This document shows positions 55,731 through 63,402 of a stretch of 64,000 nt of DNA, piece after piece. Positions within the stretch are counted from its first letter, which is position 1, and every line of letters begins with the position of its first letter. Source of the DNA: Pseudomonadota bacterium (GTDB taxonomy: Bacteria; Pseudomonadota; Gammaproteobacteria; JAKAQQ01). The notes beneath the pieces were generated by a model. The model saw only the letters and a list, made by a program, of their open reading frames with translations. It had not been told where the DNA came from and ran no database searches. A program made the translations under genes and the position numbers. The stretch covers positions 32,001-96,000 of the forward strand of contig DAHVLZ010000010.1 in the NCBI GenBank assembly GCA_027320085.1. Reading direction: 5' to 3'.

Positions 55731-56066
55731 CTAGACGGGTTTCAGGGTTCCTTTGGGATAGACCGCAATTACGGCCTGGCGCTGGAGGGTGACTTCGACA
55801 CCCGGTGCCGTCTCCAGGGCAATGGCTTGTTCATTGAGCCGGACAACCCGTCCCACGAGCCCCCCCTGGGTCAACACCTCGTCTCCCGTGGCCAGCCCCT
55901 CGATCAACTTCCGGTGCTCTTTCTGGCGCTTGCTCTGGGGCCGGATGGCCACGAAATAGAAAAACAGGATGAAGATGACGAAAATCACGACGAGCTGCCA
56001 GAGCCCGCCCGTCGGTTGGGCCGCCGGGCTGGTGCCCTGGGCCCAGGCATTGGTGATCAGGTTCAT
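55731..56066 (-). CDS. yajC: Preprotein translocase subunit YajC
   Basis: IRPQSKR, GDEVLTQGG, PKGTLK. Confidence 0.95.
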   Translation of the reverse strand: MNLITNAWAQGTSPAAQPTGGLWQLVVIFVIFILFFYFVAIRPQSKRQKEHRKLIEGLATGDEVLTQGGLVGRVVRLNEQAIALETAPGVEVTLQRQAVIAVYPKGTLKPV

Positions 56067-56101
56067 GAGAATCCCCGCCAGTCCGGATGGTCCGGCGGGC
56101 A

Positions 56102-57214
56102 TTATCGCATAGCTGATCCACTCTGTTGCTGGCGCTCGAACGCGGCCACGGACTCGGCCAGGCAGCCGGCCTGGATGGCCTCCCGCAGCCTGGCCAGGAG
56201 TCCCTGGTAATAGGTCAGGTTATGGAGGGTGAGGAGCCGGAGCGCCAGGGGATCTCCGATGCGGTCGAGATGGTGGAGGTAGGCCCGGCTGTGGTGCCGG
56301 CAGGCCCGGCACGGACAGTCCGGCTCGATCGGGGACTCGTCCAGGCGGTAGCGGCTGTTGCGCAGTCTCAGGATTCCGGCCCGGGTGAACAGGTGGGCAT
56401 TGCGCCCATTGCGGGTCGGGAGCACGCAATCGAAAAGGTCGATGCCGCGGCAGACGGCGGCCACGAGATCGGCCGGCTTGCCCACCCCCATGAGATAGCG
56501 GGGCCGGTCCGCCGGCAGGAGGGCCGAGAGCGCATCCAGCACCGCCTCCCGCGCCGTGGCGGGTTCGCCGACGGCCAGCCCGCCCACGGCATAGCCGTCG
56601 AATCCGAGGGGGGTGAGACCCTCGAAGGACCGCCTTCGCAAGTCCGGGTCGATGCCGCCCTGGATGATGCCGAAGAGGGCGCCCGCCCCGTCCGCCGACG
56701 CGCTCCGGCACCGTGCGGCCCAGAGGAGCGACCGCCGGAGGGCGGATTCAACCTCCTCCCGGGGTGCCGGGTAGGACGGACACTGGTCCAGGACCATCCG
56801 GATGTCGCTGCCGAGCTGTTTCTGAATCTCGATGGCCCCCTCGGGGGTCAGGCGGAAACGCCGTCCGTCCACGGGTGCCTGAAACGTGACCCCCTCGTCG
56901 TCGAGCGTCCGCCGGTGGGCGAGACTCATGACCTGGAATCCGCCCGAGTCGGTGAGAATCGGTCCCTCCCAGCCCATGAAGGCATGGAGTCCGCCCATCC
57001 GTCCGATCACCTCGAGCCCGGGACGCAGCGCGAGATGCAGGGTGTTGCCGAGGATCATCTGGGCGCCGGTCGCCCGAAGGTCCTCCGGATCGAGCGCCTT
57101 GACCGCCCCGTAGGTCCCGACGGGCATGAAGGCCGGGGTGTCGACCGTGCCGTGATCGAGCGTGAGCCGTCCCCGGCGGGCCCGACCCTCGGTTGCCAGA
57201 CACTCAAAGCGCAT
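56102..57214 (-). CDS. tgt: tRNA-guanine transglycosylase
   Basis: TPAFMPVGT, TDSGGFQV, FDCVLPTR, CPCRAC. Confidence 0.97.
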   Translation of the reverse strand: MRFECLATEGRARRGRLTLDHGTVDTPAFMPVGTYGAVKALDPEDLRATGAQMILGNTLHLALRPGLEVIGRMGGLHAFMGWEGPILTDSGGFQVMSLAHRRTLDDEGVTFQAPVDGRRFRLTPEGAIEIQKQLGSDIRMVLDQCPSYPAPREEVESALRRSLLWAARCRSASADGAGALFGIIQGGIDPDLRRRSFEGLTPLGFDGYAVGGLAVGEPATAREAVLDALSALLPADRPRYLMGVGKPADLVAAVCRGIDLFDCVLPTRNGRNAHLFTRAGILRLRNSRYRLDESPIEPDCPCRACRHHSRAYLHHLDRIGDPLALRLLTLHNLTYYQGLLARLREAIQAGCLAESVAAFERQQQSGSAMR

Positions 57215-58244
57215 GGCGGGACGGAAGCCACATGGCATCCCCGTAGCTCAGAAACCGGTATCCCGCCCCGAGTGCGTGGGCATAGGCCGTGCGGATCCGC
57301 TCAAGGCCGGCGAAGGCGGAGACGAGACACAGGAGCGTCGAGCCCGGCTGGTGAAAATTCGTGAGCAGGGCATCGGTCAGTCGAAACTCGAAACCCGGGC
57401 GGATGAAAAGCCGGGTCTGTCCGGAACCTGCGGTGAGCGGATGGTCGGGGTAGCCCGATCGGCGCGCCAATGTCTCCAAGACCCGCACGACCGTGGTGCC
57501 GACGGCGATGACGCGTCCGCCCCGGCTTTTGGCCGCAACCAGTGCCGAGACAGTCGCCTCGCTCACCTGATAGCGCTCCTCGTGCATTTCATGATCCTCG
57601 ATCCGCTCGGTGCGCACGGGCTCGAAGGTTCCCGGCCCGACATGGAGGGTCACGGCCGTCCGGGCCACGCCACGGGCCGCAAGCGCACCGAGCAGCCCCT
57701 CGTCGAAATGGAGCCCTGCGGTGGGCGCCGCAACCGATCCCGGCTCACGGGCAAAAACCGTCTGGTAACGCTCCTGATCGAGCGCTTCCGCCGCCCGTCC
57801 GAGATAAGGCGGCAGCGGGACCTCGCCTGCCGTGGAGAGGACATCCGCCCAGCCCCCCTCCTCGAGCACGAGCTGCCACCGATCCCCGTCGCGGCTCACA
57901 ACCCGGATACGGAAACCGGGTTCGAGGCGGAGCAAAGCGCCGGGGGCCAGGCGGTGCCGGGTCCGGAGCCAGGCCCAGGCCAGAGCGCCTGCGGGCGCCT
58001 CGATGAGGAGGATCTCGATCCGGCCCCCGGTCTCCTTCCGGGCCCGGAGCCGGGCCGGGATCACGCGGGAGTCATTGACGACGACGAGATCGCCGGGCGC
58101 AAGGCAAGCCGGCCAGTCCCGCATGAAACCGTCCCGGAGCCCCCGGGGTCCGACCGTGAGCAGGCGGCTTGCGCTGCGCTGCGAGAGGGGATAACGGGCA
58201 ATCCGGTCCGCCGGAAGCACATAGTCGAAATCCGCCCGGTTCAT
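57204..58244 (-). CDS. queA: SAM:tRNA ribosyltransferase-isomerase
   Basis: PLPPY, YQTVF, AAPTAGLHF, TNFH, SYGDAM. Confidence 0.97.
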   Translation of the reverse strand: MNRADFDYVLPADRIARYPLSQRSASRLLTVGPRGLRDGFMRDWPACLAPGDLVVVNDSRVIPARLRARKETGGRIEILLIEAPAGALAWAWLRTRHRLAPGALLRLEPGFRIRVVSRDGDRWQLVLEEGGWADVLSTAGEVPLPPYLGRAAEALDQERYQTVFAREPGSVAAPTAGLHFDEGLLGALAARGVARTAVTLHVGPGTFEPVRTERIEDHEMHEERYQVSEATVSALVAAKSRGGRVIAVGTTVVRVLETLARRSGYPDHPLTAGSGQTRLFIRPGFEFRLTDALLTNFHQPGSTLLCLVSAFAGLERIRTAYAHALGAGYRFLSYGDAMWLPSRHAL

Positions 58245-58339
58245 GACATTGCCCGCCGAAACCCCACCCCGGACATTTTATGAGGTTTGACCATGGGACA
58301 GAGCTTGGTAGACTAGACTTCCGTTTCCAAGTCCCGTGC

Positions 58340-59185
58340 ATGTCCCCGTCGACCCCACCCTCAAGGACCCGCCCCACGGAGTGGCTGGACGGTCTGACTG
58401 CCGCTCCTGCGTGGCAGCGGGGGGTCTTTTTGTGCCTCTTCGTCCTGATCGCGCTCTGGGGCAGCATCCGGCCGGTCAGGGCCGACTACAACTGGAACGA
58501 GATCGAGGCCGACAAATCTCTCCTCACCCAAACCACCGAGTCATCCGGCCTTCAGGGTTCCGTCAACTTGGGCTATCTCGCCACCACGGGCAACAGCGTG
58601 TCGAGAAGCCTCAATGCCAAGGTTCTCATGGGCTACCGCGTGGGCCCGTGGCGGACCGATCTCAACCTGAACTGGATCCAGGCCAGTGCTGCCGGGGTTC
58701 TCTCCGACCAGAGCCGGGAAGCCAGTTCCCAGACCGACTACGACTTCAACAGTCATAACTACACCTTTCTCTATCTCGATTACCTGAATGCGCCCTTCAG
58801 CGGTTACCTCCGCCGCTACACCGAAGTTGTGGGTTACGGTCGCCGGCTCATCGCGATCCCGGGCCAGTCCCTGGATGCGGAGCTCGGTGTGGGCGCCCGC
58901 CAGACCCTGCCCACGACCGGTCCCTCGCGCAGTTCGGCCATCGAACGGTTGGCCCTGAACTACCGCTGGAGAATCAGCCGGACGAGTTCCCTGGTCGAAG
59001 GGGTGAGCCTCGCCCGCGGTACGACCAGCACCTACTCGGAATCCAGTACCTCGCTCATCCTCCACGTCGCGGGCAACCTGGCCCTCTCGGCGTCCTATAC
59101 CATCTCCCATGATTCCACCGTCCCGGTGGGCTTTCTCAAGACGAACACGGAGACTTCCGTGTCGCTGATCTACAGCTTCAACTGA
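58340..59185 (+). CDS. DUF481/YdiY-like outer membrane beta-barrel (start uncertain)
   Basis: Signal-like segment, GYLATTGNS, GYGRRL, terminal YSFN. Confidence 0.8.
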   Translation: MSPSTPPSRTRPTEWLDGLTAAPAWQRGVFLCLFVLIALWGSIRPVRADYNWNEIEADKSLLTQTTESSGLQGSVNLGYLATTGNSVSRSLNAKVLMGYRVGPWRTDLNLNWIQASAAGVLSDQSREASSQTDYDFNSHNYTFLYLDYLNAPFSGYLRRYTEVVGYGRRLIAIPGQSLDAELGVGARQTLPTTGPSRSSAIERLALNYRWRISRTSSLVEGVSLARGTTSTYSESSTSLILHVAGNLALSASYTISHDSTVPVGFLKTNTETSVSLIYSFN

Positions 59186-59379: not shown

Positions 59380-59466
59380 GCCGGGGTGGCGGAACTGGTA
59401 GACGCGCCGGACTCAAAATCCGGTTGGGGAAACCCAGTGAGGGTTCGATTCCCTCCCCCGGCACCA
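59380..59466 (+). tRNA. tRNA-Leu(CAA), intron-less
   Basis: Cloverleaf with long variable arm; CCGGA-CTCAAAA-TCCGG anticodon arm; GTTCGA; CCA end. Confidence 0.97.
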
Positions 59467-59743
59467 AGAGGCTTTCTCACTCACTCCCGCTCTGTCTAAT
59501 ACCATATAAGAATCATAGCGTTATGTTTATACAAGATGGAATAGAATCCTTCCAGACCTTGCGGGAGCATTCCAGTTGGAGGCATCCTCTGATGCGCGTG
59601 ATTCAAAATCTAAAATATAGAAATCAAAAGCAATAGTAAATCCTTCCTCTACAAATAGTTATTTACAGAATCTCGATTTGTGATATCCATACACAACTCT
59701 TTCACAGTTTCACACTTTTGAGAGAGTTTGGGAGGATATTCCC

Positions 59744-61029: not shown

Positions 61030-61350
61030 GCCGGCGTGGCGGAATGGCAGACGCGGCGGACTCAAGCCAGAATTGAGTGCTCGCCGGGAAACCGGCGATG
61101 CAGAACTGCTCAAAGTCGGGGAAGCCTGAAATGGTAATCCCGAGCCAAGCCTGAACGGACAGTTCAGGAAGGTGTAGAGACTAGACGGGCAGCACCTAAC
61201 CTCCGAATTCTCCGGAGCACGGTGAAGGGATAGTCCAGACCACAAACTTCCGTGAAGGCTCCTGCCTGACGGAAGGCGGCGAAAGCCGTAGAGGCAAGAA
61301 AATCCGCTGGGCGCAAGCCCGTGTGGGTTCGACTCCCTCCGCCGGCACCA
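61030..61350 (+). tRNA. tRNA-Leu(CAA) interrupted in the anticodon (exons 61030-61063 and 61299-61350)
   Basis: Joined exons give an 86-nt Leu-type cloverleaf with GCGGA-CTC^AAAA-TCCGC and a CCA end. Confidence 0.92.
61064..61298 (+). ncRNA. Group I intron (IC3-like), 235 nt, no ORF
   Basis: P1 ACTCAA/TTGAGT; core GAAGGTGTAGAGACTAGACGG...CACCTAA...GGTGAAGGGATAGTCC; GAAA tetraloops; terminal G. Confidence 0.93.
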
Positions 61351-61659
61351 ACTTTCCTTTGCCGTCGCTTCGGAGCCGAAAAGACCGCGGGTCACCATGA
61401 ATCCGCTTCGGCGTAGGGGATGGCACCGTCCTGCGCAGGGCAATTTCCTTAAGTTTCCGTACGCCGGGGAAAAAGCGGGACAGTTGCTCCCGCCCCGGCA
61501 GCATAGGATGGAACCATCCGGTGTTTCTCTGTTCAGAAACCACGCTGCTTGCTGCAACATTCGCACTGGCTATCCGTTGGATATCTCCTGCAGAGAACGT
61601 GCGGTCGTCAGAGACCGAGTACGCCCTCACGTGCGAAAGATTTACCAGCCGACCAGGAA

Positions 61660-61950
61660 CTACTTCTTGCCGCAGGTCTGGCTCACATTAGCAGACACGA
61701 GTGTATAAGAGTCGATCTCTAGAGATTTGCCCGTCTTCCCATTGTGTTTCTTGCAAAGCGGAACAATGTACCAGCTCTTGTCAGTGGCACTGTCCTTCTG
61801 GACGTGGGCGCCCACCAGGTCTATTTCAAAGCATTTTTCTACAGGGCAGTATGTGGGAACGGTCCCGCCGCCGAATTTCTTCCAATGATCGAGCCAGCTA
61901 CCGCACTTGCATGTATTGTCGCTCGTACCGTTAACGTTGATTACCTTCAT
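61660..61950 (-). CDS. Small Cys/His-rich protein, HNH (beta-beta-alpha-Me)-like
   Basis: GGAG RBS; CKC, C-x4-C, GAHV...IVPLCKKHN. Confidence 0.7.
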   Translation of the reverse strand: MKVINVNGTSDNTCKCGSWLDHWKKFGGGTVPTYCPVEKCFEIDLVGAHVQKDSATDKSWYIVPLCKKHNGKTGKSLEIDSYTLVSANVSQTCGKK

Positions 61951-61997
61951 GATGTTCTCCTTATGAGTCGATGTCTCCCGCGATCAGGCGGGCAGCC

Positions 61998-62348
61998 TTA
62001 GCCGCCCTCTTTCACGTTGCAGCCGTTTGGCGTATAGGCATCCGTATAGTGCGCCAGAAGGTCAGCCTCCTCGGCGATCCGATCTTTCTCTTTTGTGTTG
62101 AGGTGGACATGGACGTGGGTTGCGCCTTTTCTCTTGATACACGCCGCTTGATGATGGTCGTCGCTGACCCTGTCTGCCAAGTCACCCTCACCAATGTAGA
62201 TGGGAACCCATAGGCCTTTGTCGTTCTTCTTTGAAAAGATGTAATTGCCGTCTTGATTGGCGTTGAAGTCGGCAGGCAGCTCCCAAATGAAGTACGTATA
62301 TTTTGTGCTGCTCGCGCCGGTCCAACTACATTTCTTATGCTCAGCCAT
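61998..62348 (-). CDS. Small GIY-YIG-like protein
   Basis: GNYIF...IYIGE..LADR...HH...EEADL...CN; GGAG RBS. Confidence 0.75.
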   Translation of the reverse strand: MAEHKKCSWTGASSTKYTYFIWELPADFNANQDGNYIFSKKNDKGLWVPIYIGEGDLADRVSDDHHQAACIKRKGATHVHVHLNTKEKDRIAEEADLLAHYTDAYTPNGCNVKEGG

Positions 62349-62537
62349 GTCGATTCTCCCGTTCCTGATTCTCCAGCCTTTGCGAACGATCGCGGTAGCG
62401 GGCTGCAATCAACCCGAGCACATTTTACCATGAATTGCCACTTCTGATATGGGCAAGCAGCATGCACGAGCTGCAAACACGTTGGCAACTATTGCAATTG
62501 GGAATTGTTCATCGTATGCTGGCTATGTAATCGTTCC

Positions 62538-62918
62538 ATGGACAAGAATTTCTACCTCCGTTTCGGCCAGATGCTCCGGGAAGCGCGCAAGGCTTCCGGG
62601 TTGTCGCAAGAGGACCTGGGCAAGTCTGTCGGCCTCAACAGAACATCGGTCAGTAATATCGAAAAGGGCCGTCAGAAAATTCTGCTCCACACGTTCTGTG
62701 AGTTATTGAGGGTATTGAACGTAGGGCCACGCGACCTGATTCCCTTGCCGGTTGAGAAAAAGCCGCCCGCCAATCCTGATCTGAGCGGATACCGGCCGGC
62801 TGTGCGTGCCTTCATCGCAAGGGGCATCGGCCTGCAATCGAGAGAGGAGTCGAAGAGTAAATCCAATGTCAATTCGCCGCTTCAAGATTCAGAAGCTCGT
62901 AAGCGAGTTGCTCGATGA
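62538..62918 (+). CDS. XRE-family HTH regulator
   Basis: LSQEDLGKSVGLNRTSVSNIEKGRQ. Confidence 0.92.
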   Translation: MDKNFYLRFGQMLREARKASGLSQEDLGKSVGLNRTSVSNIEKGRQKILLHTFCELLRVLNVGPRDLIPLPVEKKPPANPDLSGYRPAVRAFIARGIGLQSREESKSKSNVNSPLQDSEARKRVAR

Positions 62919-63402
62919 GTTCGAAATAGCGGAACCACCCGTCCCGGTGCGGAAGCTTGCACGCGGCCGCGGCGCCCGGATATTCCTGGAAGGCCAGGAA
63001 GGCGATCTGTCTGGGTTCCTGTTCAGGCGCGAAAAAGAGATCATCATTGGCGTCAATACGAATCAGGCCCCCATTCGCCAGCGGTTCACCATAGCGCATG
63101 AATTGGGGCACTTGCTGCTTCATGATTTGGATGATCTGCATGTGGACCACGGGTTCGTGGTACGGTTGCGCAGCGATGTATCGAGTCTCGGCCTTGACGA
63201 GGCAGAAATGGAGGCCAACCGGTTCGCGGCGGAACTCTTGATGCCGACGCGGCTCCTGAAGGAAGATCTGGAAGGTACGGAGCTGGACTTGACGAATGAC
63301 CAGACGTTTCGGTCTCTGGCCAAGCGTTACGGCGTCAGCGCGCAGGCTTTGGCCATTCGGCTTACTGGCTTGGGATATCTGCCAACCGTAGAGACTGCCT
63401 GA
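62866..63402 (+). CDS. ImmA/IrrE-family metallo-endopeptidase
   Basis: RQRFTIAHELGH (HExxH), EMEANRFAAELLMP. Confidence 0.94.
   Translation: MSIRRFKIQKLVSELLDEFEIAEPPVPVRKLARGRGARIFLEGQEGDLSGFLFRREKEIIIGVNTNQAPIRQRFTIAHELGHLLLHDLDDLHVDHGFVVRLRSDVSSLGLDEAEMEANRFAAELLMPTRLLKEDLEGTELDLTNDQTFRSLAKRYGVSAQALAIRLTGLGYLPTVETA

Follow-up and report, generated by a model that had tools for sequence, protein, structure and literature searches.

A four-gene cassette joining an XRE repressor and M78 peptidase pair to a minimal GIY-YIG protein and a small Cys/His protein: a candidate stress-derepressed nuclease module

Organisation of the four-gene block

The DNA considered here is a stretch of 64,000 nucleotides from a gammaproteobacterium of the phylum Pseudomonadota (assembly GCA_027320085.1, contig DAHVLZ010000010.1, positions 32,001 to 96,000), hereafter called the window. 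Its subject is a block of four small genes close to the end of the window, in which a helix-turn-helix (HTH) repressor of the XRE family and a zinc metallopeptidase of the M78 family face an operon of two genes for small proteins. The first of these proteins, GIY116, resembles GIY-YIG nucleases, and the second, CysHis96, carries many invariant cysteines and histidines (Table 1). An earlier note on this DNA, made from the sequence alone, had described such a block, with a 189-bp gap and an overlapping pair of HTH and HExxH peptidase genes, and the list of open reading frames (ORFs) bears out both the description and the coordinates. The two regulator genes overlap by 53 nt. The ATG of GIY116 at 62348 lies inside a longer ORF that starts with TTG, and purine runs resembling Shine-Dalgarno sequences can be read ahead of the ATG of both small genes. 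The block also has the lower G+C content that the note had reported, 0.50-0.57 over 61400-63400 against 0.65-0.73 at 56000-58400.

It is evident that the four ORFs are genes. Searches with GIY116 and CysHis96 yielded 806 of 808 and 130 of 130 candidates, respectively, at E <= 1e-3. A second copy of the block is present in a 12.3-kb Terriglobia locus, L001 (L-numbers denote the genome and metagenome loci of this analysis), and between the two copies the ratio of nonsynonymous to synonymous divergence (dN/dS) is 0.16 for CysHis96, 0.20 for GIY116, 0.14 for the HTH gene and 0.10 for the peptidase gene, at dS values of 0.50-0.64. Because both small proteins belong to large conserved families and the dN/dS is low in all four genes, these are real genes under purifying selection rather than chance ORFs. 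In the curated family libraries (Pfam, NCBIfam, PADLOC and PHROGs), neither of the two minus-strand proteins has a match above the curated cut-off.

Table 1. Features of the four-gene block and its surroundings, in window coordinates unless stated otherwise
Feature	Position	Strand	Basis or remark
CysHis96 gene, 96 aa	61660-61950	minus	ORF list; second gene of the small operon
GIY116 gene, 116 aa	61998-62348	minus	ORF list; first gene of the small operon
TTG-started ORF containing GIY116	61998-62408	minus
Divergent intergenic region, 189 bp	62349-62537		between the GIY116 and HTH genes
HTH repressor gene, 126 aa, XRE family (CapH/ImmR-like)	62538-62918	plus	ATG 62538, stop 62918
M78 peptidase gene (ImmA/IrrE/CapP-type zinc metallopeptidase), 178 aa	62866-63402	plus	ATG 62866, stop 63402
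TT_ORF2-like stretch of CysHis96	61879-61920	minus	residues 11-24
Terminator-like hairpin and T run	61476-61497	minus	pattern match; about 160 nt downstream of the CysHis96 gene
tRNA-Leu(CAA), intron-less	59380-59466
Integrase ORF, 88 aa	59744-60010	plus
Integrase ORF, 320 aa	60007-60969	plus
tRNA-Leu(CAA), intron-bearing	61030-61350	plus	ARAGORN, introns allowed
SoFic-like gene, 249 aa	63592-63999	minus	L082 5593-6342
58-nt repeat of the tRNA-Leu 3' part	contig 112528-112585		beyond the window end

A discrete cassette in a defence island

When 20 kb of this genome were compared with L001 by BLASTN, a single common stretch was found, 61658-63396, with 81.9% identity along 1759 nt. Its limits fall no more than a few bases from the outer stop codons, those of CysHis96 and of the peptidase, and on the CysHis96 side it stops 2 nt past the codon. 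The flanks in L001 comprise adk, a PIN gene, a tetratricopeptide repeat (TPR) gene, ispD/ispF and a further GIY-YIG gene of 95 aa, and are unrelated to the flanks here; no match to integrase families was found in the 15 flanking L001 ORFs scanned, and no convincing terminal repeats were found around the cassette. Since the homology with L001 is confined to the four genes and ends at their outer stops, the four genes form a discrete, self-contained cassette of 1.74 kb that moves as one unit. The terminator-like hairpin beyond CysHis96 lies outside the conserved cassette and is possibly the end of the GIY116-CysHis96 transcript; the pattern scan that located it found three such sites against 2.1 expected in shuffles.

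In this genome the cassette is part of a larger element. An intron-less tRNA-Leu(CAA) gene is followed, about 21 kb away, by a 58-nt repeat of its 3' part at 98% identity, and between the two extends an island that runs from window position 59467 onward (contig 91467-112585; also covered by loci L082, L083 and L168). It holds, in order, an integrase in two frames, an intron-bearing tRNA-Leu(CAA), the cassette, a SoFic-like gene, a Schlafen/AlbA gene, a Ppl-like ATPase, a type III restriction-modification (RM) system (MTase_III, 5.5e-225), the cyclase of a type I cyclic-oligonucleotide-based antiphage signalling system (CBASS; 4.6e-123) with a four-transmembrane (4TM) effector, and AbiEi/AbiEii. 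This tRNA-Leu-bounded stretch of about 21 kb is an integrative defence island, and the cassette lies 0.7 kb from the end of the integrase gene.

The regulator pair and the shared intergenic region

The HTH protein matches Pfam HTH_3 (4.1e-13) and PADLOC capH (3.3e-9), and the peptidase matches Pfam Peptidase_M78 (3.1e-26) and PADLOC capP (2.4e-34). These matches uphold the placement of the pair, already made in the earlier note, in the class of ImmR/ImmA, DdrO/IrrE and CapH/CapP. The HTH protein carries a C-terminal tail of about 60 aa, and the peptidase has the motif HELGH. The likeness is closest to CapH/CapP, whose profiles are the best PADLOC matches: an XRE HTH gene adjoins an M78 peptidase gene, both match the family profiles, and the pair lies divergent from the operon that it would control.

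The peptidase departs from CapP in its C-terminal part. The match takes in no more than positions 4-155 of the 242-position capP profile, the protein is 178 residues long, and its cysteine count is zero. As judged from its sequence, the peptidase is a short form without a GAF domain or cysteines, of a size that we take to be that of ImmA. The genes downstream also differ from those under CapH/CapP control in being two small uncharacterised proteins and not CBASS. In two reports on CapH/CapP, single-stranded DNA (ssDNA) stimulates cleavage of the repressor, giving derepression (10.1101/2022.04.27.489752; 10.64898/2026.05.16.725639); the second describes CapP as sensing ssDNA through a groove of its GAF domain and a cysteine switch, and records that the cysteine switch is absent from some CapP homologues (10.64898/2026.05.16.725639). 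Because the GAF domain and the cysteine switch are missing here, the activating signal of this peptidase is not given by the CapP model.

The first of these reports likens CapH/CapP to ImmR/ImmA and DdrO/IrrE (10.1101/2022.04.27.489752). By analogy with ImmR/ImmA of ICEBs1 and phage-like elements, and with DdrO/IrrE(PprI) of Deinococcus, the repressor of the present block would be cleaved by its M78 peptidase after DNA damage, and carriage on an integrative element is a further trait in common with ImmR/ImmA. The block differs from ImmR/ImmA in showing no connection with genes for excision or transfer and in that the L001 copy lies outside any recognisable mobile element, and from IrrE in that the HTH and GAF domains of IrrE are absent from the peptidase.

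The 189-bp intergenic region is presumed to contain the operator of the HTH protein together with both promoters. When it is set against its 203-bp counterpart in L001, 138 bases are identical, with conserved blocks beside the HTH start and before the ribosome-binding site of GIY116.

GIY116, a minimal GIY-YIG protein

The AlphaFold 2 (AF2) model of GIY116 has a predicted local distance difference test (pLDDT) score of 93.3, and the nine top rows returned for it by Foldseek are all GIY-YIG domains of UvrC (probability 0.94-1.00). Alignment by VIA-align to the UvrC GIY-YIG N-domain of T. maritima, a 90-residue chain, gave Z 8.7 with a root-mean-square deviation (rmsd) of 2.2 Å over 81 aligned residues and 26% identity. 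The UvrC N-domain chains overall (89-90 residues) gave Z 8.5-8.7 and rmsd 2.2-2.5 Å over 80-81 residues at 26-28% identity, and further fold matches were obtained to I-TevI (Z 6.7), R.Eco29kI (Z 5.7) and the defence nuclease PD-T4-3 (Z 5.5).

Eight positions, Y36, Y51, I52, G53, R60, E93, E94 and N111, are invariant in 45 GIY116 sequences. The predicted model has the alpha/beta fold of the GIY-YIG superfamily, and the motif residues of UvrC/Cho, I-TevI, R.Eco29kI and PD-T4-3, namely the tyrosine of GIY, the tyrosine of YIG, the arginine, the glutamate and the asparagine, are all present. By comparison with the residue numbering of UvrC, they follow each other in the order and at the distances usual for the superfamily, and their spacing agrees with the aligned ranges, 22-113 in GIY116 and 4-90 in the UvrC chain. 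The predicted fold and the invariant motif thus sustain the GIY-YIG label of the earlier note. Given this fold and the invariant motif residues, GIY116 is very probably an active nuclease.

GIY116 differs from the known GIY-YIG nucleases in several respects. It matches no Pfam family, PF01541 included, at E <= 0.1, and no NCBIfam model at E <= 1; it has an extra N-terminal beta-hairpin (residues 6-23) ahead of the aligned core, which begins at about residue 22; and it has no accessory domain. Placed by predicted fold and by motifs, it represents a divergent GIY-YIG subfamily. Only two longer forms were found, with N-terminal extensions in which no Pfam domain was detected, and these are probably over-called ORFs. 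As far as its sequence tells, GIY116 stands alone, with no accessory DNA-binding, partner-binding, UvrB-binding or helix-hairpin-helix region.

CysHis96, a large family of small Cys/His proteins

Among the close relatives of CysHis96, 12 positions are invariant (C14, C16, H22, C35, C40, H49, D57, C66, H69, N70, N88 and C93), and eight of them are counted as cysteine or histidine positions; H69 is replaceable by cysteine in distant members. Because eight invariant Cys/His residues suffice for two zinc sites, CysHis96 probably binds two zinc ions. The family is large: a profile search of 1.84 billion representatives returned 1743 clusters at 50% identity with E <= 1e-3, of which 766 had E <= 1e-10, and almost all have lengths of 90-130 aa. 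Among 19 longer members scanned, four have tandem repeats of the family domain, and no Pfam domain was found above its curated cut-off besides a zinc motif of TT_ORF2-like type.

The AF2 model of CysHis96 (pLDDT 86.8) has two strands, residues 45-52 and 61-66, followed by a short helix at 67-70. The order of elements is C-x4-C, a strand with an invariant histidine, a second strand, C-x2-H/C, and an invariant asparagine at the start of the short helix; the strands and the helix centre on 'GAHV ... PLCxxHN'. By eye this resembles the zinc-braced beta-beta-alpha motif of HNH or His-Me finger nucleases (CxxC...CxxC), from which it differs in that the residue before the conserved histidine is alanine and not the usual aspartate or histidine, and in that no significant profile, profile-profile or structural match accompanies the likeness. 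Pfam gave no PF01844 match for the protein, and PF01844 is not among the 25 families listed (of 29 matched) for 92 CysHis96 members at E <= 1. The weak Pfam matches in these 92 members include two families that we presume to belong to the HNH clan, RecA_dep_nuc, matched by six members (best 0.0063), and DUF968, matched by two.

A VIA search of the model against 48,161 chains reached at best Z 3.6, to small ribosomal proteins, with no HNH chain above background, and VIA over the list from Foldseek reached at best Z 3.1. The family profile found only chance matches to caspase-6 (E 0.17) among the sequences of the PDB, and the ESM Atlas returned unnamed clusters only. Profile comparison by hhalign gave probabilities of at most 0.29% against three neighbour families and of 0.12-0.19% against neighbouring HNH proteins. 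The earlier note had called the 96-aa protein Cys/His and HNH-like: the Cys/His pattern is real and invariant, and a connection with HNH emerged from none of the profile and fold searches. The second nuclease of the module that the note proposed is likewise not borne out, as the 96-aa protein has no detectable nuclease fold and no significant profile match.

The TT_ORF2-like motif is an observation of its own. Weak matches to this Pfam family occur in 59 of 92 members (best 0.00012), and in CysHis96 they fall on a stretch that holds C14, C16 and H22 in the pattern C-x-C-x5-H, which we believe to be that of the ORF2 phosphatases of anelloviruses and the VP2 phosphatases of gyroviruses. The resemblance is probably that of a merely common zinc-knuckle pattern.

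Both small families are patchy in distribution and rare in viruses. GIY116 occurs in 6 and CysHis96 in 1 of the 401 genomes of a phylum sample, this genome being included in both counts, and the IMG/VR collection holds two loci of the former and one of the latter.

Neighbourhoods of the two small genes

Genomic neighbourhoods were compared in two sets of loci, the best 80 of 120 confirmed genome loci anchored on GIY116, 78 of which have an ORF-level GIY116 match, and the best 80 of 480 confirmed metagenome loci anchored on CysHis96. Pfam was run on neighbours within 700-900 bp.

An XRE gene, an M78 gene or both stand directly beside GIY116 in 8 of 78 loci, with three layouts and three peptidase sizes: the regulator genes are divergent in L001, L008 and L011, co-directional in L002, L003, L009 and L030, and fused as XRE-M78 in L020. 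In three further loci an M78 gene lies 1.4-2.4 kb from GIY116. All seven M78 matches found by phmmer are within 2.5 kb of GIY116, and none falls farther out, at 2.5-6 kb. On a tree of 77 GIY116 proteins built by maximum likelihood, adjacency to XRE/M78 requires five changes, at least four of them forced by supported branches, and none of 500 shuffles scored as low. A contig of IMG/VR adds a 371-aa ORF with a weak M78 match (9e-6) that ends 33 nt before a GIY116 ORF of 163 aa. The partner beside GIY116 in these arrangements differs in family, being CysHis96 here and in L001, a canonical HNH protein of 100-136 aa in L002 and L003, and a 53-aa CxxC protein in L009; in the last three loci the partner gene lies between the peptidase and GIY116.

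One locus of this set, L011 (4040-9366), comes from a metagenome-assembled genome (MAG) of the Desulfobacterales. There a GAF-less, CapP-like peptidase of 176 aa, which matches the peptidase here at 7e-33, and a CapH-like HTH protein are encoded opposite an operon whose first gene is a GIY116 homologue. It continues with a 184-aa ORF (membrane-spanning by eye), a CD-NTase recognised by Pfam, a 606-aa ORF and a 162-aa ORF, and we read it as a type II CBASS in which the 606-aa and 162-aa products are putative Cap2 and Cap3. A close relative of the short peptidase thus fronts a CBASS operon, which is a further likeness to CapH/CapP. The remaining GIY116 loci are mixed: some have RM genes, and many have housekeeping genes such as polA (L068, for example), tyrS, rtcA and extracytoplasmic function (ECF) sigma factors.

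In the other set, GIY116 lies directly upstream of CysHis96 in L085, L112 and L119. All three arrays then carry an HNH-like gene, to which L085 and L112 add another small GIY-YIG gene. The family of the latter is here named GIY9x, and a profile was built from its alignment. A small GIY-YIG gene of either family stands next to CysHis96 on the same strand in 14 of 80 loci, upstream in 13 of them; at least 350 nt upstream of CysHis96 are present in 69 loci, and because seven of the 14 loci fed the GIY9x profile, the new finds are only five (L087, L088, L109, L149 and L156). A LexA-like S24 repressor adjoins CysHis96 in 6 of 80 loci, in four of the 80 an XRE-family gene, assigned by family cluster, is found no more than about 900 bp away, in L151 together with M78, and a WYL-WCX regulator stands beside it in two loci with identical proteins. 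Two loci have the same architecture as the cassette made of other parts, L160 (LexA-like / 63 aa, GIY-YIG 102 aa, CysHis96) and L151 (M78, XRE / small ORFs, CysHis96). Its neighbours further include DNA methyltransferases, type I RM subunits, DndB, Cap15, ThsB-TIR, OLD/AAA_15 ATPases, Vsr and NucS-like genes. A damage-type repressor module together with a minimal GIY-YIG protein and a small Cys/His protein is a recurring theme, put together on more than one occasion from differing components.

Two further observations concern the relatives of CysHis96. In L147, L157 and L136, and also in L160, L158 and L140, they are divergent from LexA-like S24 repressors that are co-oriented with DNA methyltransferases and, in L147, also with a Vsr gene. 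The layout resembles that of restriction-modification, and CysHis96 could be a very small nuclease of restriction type. In addition, eight of the nine loci of one cluster have, after CysHis96, a Cys/His protein of 86-88 aa with the motif 'WEAHHG', usually 19-132 nt downstream (for example L121 5340-5606 and L085 1654-1914); in L107 it is encoded upstream on the other strand. It has no match in Pfam or PADLOC and is one more of these small genes to lack annotation.

A derepressible mini-nuclease cassette?

The reading that we favour, and which we regard as about evenly poised between right and wrong, is that the block is a mini-nuclease cassette derepressed by DNA damage. The XRE repressor and the M78 metallopeptidase, which is expected to cut the C-terminal tail of the repressor, would form the switch, and the GIY116-CysHis96 operon, divergent from the common intergenic region, would form the cargo. 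In an unstressed cell the HTH repressor would keep the small operon off. DNA damage or phage infection would switch the peptidase on, the repressor would be cut, and the GIY-YIG nuclease and its zinc partner would be produced; the two proteins, presumably in contact with each other, would then cut DNA. The likeliest purpose, given the island, would be that of an inducible defence or abortive-infection effector, a role favoured because of the island itself and of the defence genes that lie near both families elsewhere. The cassette may represent an undescribed stress-induced nuclease module: the literature search found no paper in which an XRE/M78 or LexA-like switch has a GIY-YIG or small Cys/His protein as its cargo, the supplements of the CapH/CapP preprints, which possibly list non-CBASS operons, lying outside that search. 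A passage on GIY-YIG in PMC8565304 concerns a different exonuclease, assigned to COG0847.

Several findings weigh against this reading. On the regulatory side, the C-terminal GAF domain of CapP, with its ssDNA groove, and the cysteine-switch loop are missing from the 178-aa peptidase, a scan for sigma-70-like promoters found none in 62349-62537, the repeats found by an operator search of 62300-62600 are short and unconvincing, and a four-way alignment of the intergenic regions shows no clear palindrome. The sequencing runs found to contain this stretch are four DNA runs of one study, with no RNA run among them. For CysHis96, Foldseek found no fold match (best E 2.3 in the PDB and 2.6 in BFVD), and the protein itself has only sub-threshold matches, to Pfam TT_ORF2-like (0.0093) and phrog_17603 of PHROGs (0.018), with nothing in NCBIfam; PADLOC returned no match to either small protein. 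The linkage of the genes is loose as well. The earlier note had looked to co-occurrence elsewhere, and here the answer is divided: the exact four-gene set occurs in 1 of 80 GIY116-anchored loci, L001 alone, and GIY116 lies directly upstream of CysHis96 in only 3 of 80 loci of the other set, while the theme recurs, GIY116 adjoining XRE/M78 in 8 of 78 loci, and CysHis96 adjoining a small GIY-YIG gene in 14 and a LexA-like repressor in 6 of 80. These counts come from best-scoring relatives and not from a random sample, with neighbour ORFs called by the longest-ORF rule. Moreover, most GIY116 genes stand alone. Because many of them do so beside housekeeping genes, GIY116 is probably not very toxic by itself and need not be a defence effector.

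A bolder version of the proposal, which is tentative and which we would sooner doubt than believe, is that the CysHis96 family and the minimal GIY-YIG proteins together form a two-part DNA-cleaving effector, in which CysHis96 would contribute a two-zinc, so far unseen fold, and which would have been taken over several times by unrelated sensors of DNA damage, namely XRE plus M78, LexA-like and WYL regulators. The arrangement of sensor, mini-GIY-YIG and CysHis96 would then be an undescribed compact abortive-infection system triggered by damage or infection, of which 61658-63396 would be a complete mobile copy.

Switches made of a repressor and a peptidase are known to let DNA damage control a few immune operons, mainly CBASS. 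With a bare GIY-YIG protein of 116 aa and a zinc protein of 96 aa, the cargo of the present cassette would rank among the smallest known for these switches. CysHis96 itself is a large family without annotation or recognisable fold that is found in defence islands. If the pair were an effector, it would be a compact new defence or stress module, and a new fold or nuclease chemistry in CysHis96, if true, would be of interest by itself. Further, the subclass of GAF-less and cysteine-less peptidases, which also fronts the CBASS of L011, raises the question of how the signal is sensed.

Alternative explanations

The strongest rival is a damage-inducible repair module, in which GIY116 would be an incision nuclease of the Cho/UvrC kind and CysHis96 a DNA-binding helper in the processing of lesions. 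We consider it unlikely, and it is kept alive by the UvrC-like structure and the housekeeping neighbours. The nearest structures of GIY116 are the N-terminal incision domains of UvrC, at 26-28% identity, many GIY116 genes lie by housekeeping or DNA-metabolism genes (polA in L068, for instance), and the regulators near both families, XRE/M78, LexA-like and WYL, are all of DNA-damage sensor types. Against such a role, both genes are accessory and patchily distributed (GIY116 in 6 and CysHis96 in 1 of 401 genomes), their neighbours here and in many loci are RM, CBASS, Thoeris, Dnd and Abi genes, the GIY gene of L011 heads a type II CBASS operon under CapH/CapP control, and GIY116 lacks both a region for UvrB binding and a helix-hairpin-helix.

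A toxin-antitoxin or addiction cassette that stabilises the island would require a nuclease toxin held in check either by CysHis96 or by the XRE/M78 pair as repressor and antitoxin. The compactness and mobility of the cassette, bounded exactly by its own genes, would suit this explanation, as would the PIN toxin gene that adjoins the L001 copy; the peptidase also has a partial match, far under the cut-off of that model, to the NCBIfam 'spr1629 family repressor/antitoxin' (3.2e-18). Yet the pairing of the two small genes is not obligate. GIY116 occurs with CysHis96 in 1 of 80 loci and CysHis96 with GIY116 in 3 of 80; in other terms, GIY116 lacks CysHis96 in 77 of 78 loci, and XRE/M78 in most, and CysHis96 lacks GIY116 in 77 of 80. 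Because each small gene mostly occurs without the other, an obligate toxin pair is argued against. Nor would one expect a toxic nuclease to stand free next to polA or tyrS, and we hold this explanation to be improbable.

Less probable still is control of the excision or transfer of the tRNA-Leu island by a system of ImmR/ImmA type, with the small genes as bystanders or as recombination-directionality or processing factors. The short, GAF-less, ImmA-sized peptidase is what such a system might be expected to have, and the end of the integrase gene is 0.7 kb from the block, within an island that has tRNA-Leu and the 58-nt repeat as its borders. The L001 copy, however, sits between adk, PIN, TPR and ispDF genes with no match to an integrase family among the 15 flanking ORFs scanned, the integrase of this island belongs to a different transcription unit and is apparently split in two frames, and the same short type of peptidase (176 aa) controls a CBASS operon in L011.

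A role as free-standing homing endonucleases serving the adjoining intron-bearing tRNA-Leu, which the earlier note had kept as a weaker alternative, is largely refuted: GIY-YIG is a homing-endonuclease fold (I-TevI) and the intron-split tRNA-Leu(CAA) is 310 nt away, but the homology with L001 stops just past the CysHis96 stop codon and excludes the intron, no tRNA was found in L001 and no group I intron at E <= 0.01 in seven other loci with these genes, both proteins are bare domains of catalytic size without a DNA-binding module or extension, and the neighbours over 160 loci are regulators and defence genes and not introns.

Further features of the island

Some minor features of the island deserve mention. 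A partial repeat of 30 nt lies 1.8 kb past the 58-nt repeat of the tRNA-Leu gene. The integrase is encoded on the plus strand by two overlapping ORFs in different frames, for which Pfam gave only weak matches to SAM-like N-domains; it may be a frameshifted gene or reflect an assembly error. The second tRNA-Leu(CAA) gene, 1.56 kb downstream of the intron-less copy, carries a 235-nt intron in its anticodon loop that has no ORF of its own and scores 32.4 bits with the Rfam model Intron_gpI, below the gathering score of 50. On the other side of the cassette, the product of the SoFic-like gene covers positions 136-350 of the 361 of the SoFic profile, and a separate ORF of 118 aa (L082 6376-6732) lies directly upstream, so that the SoFic-like gene may be split or truncated.

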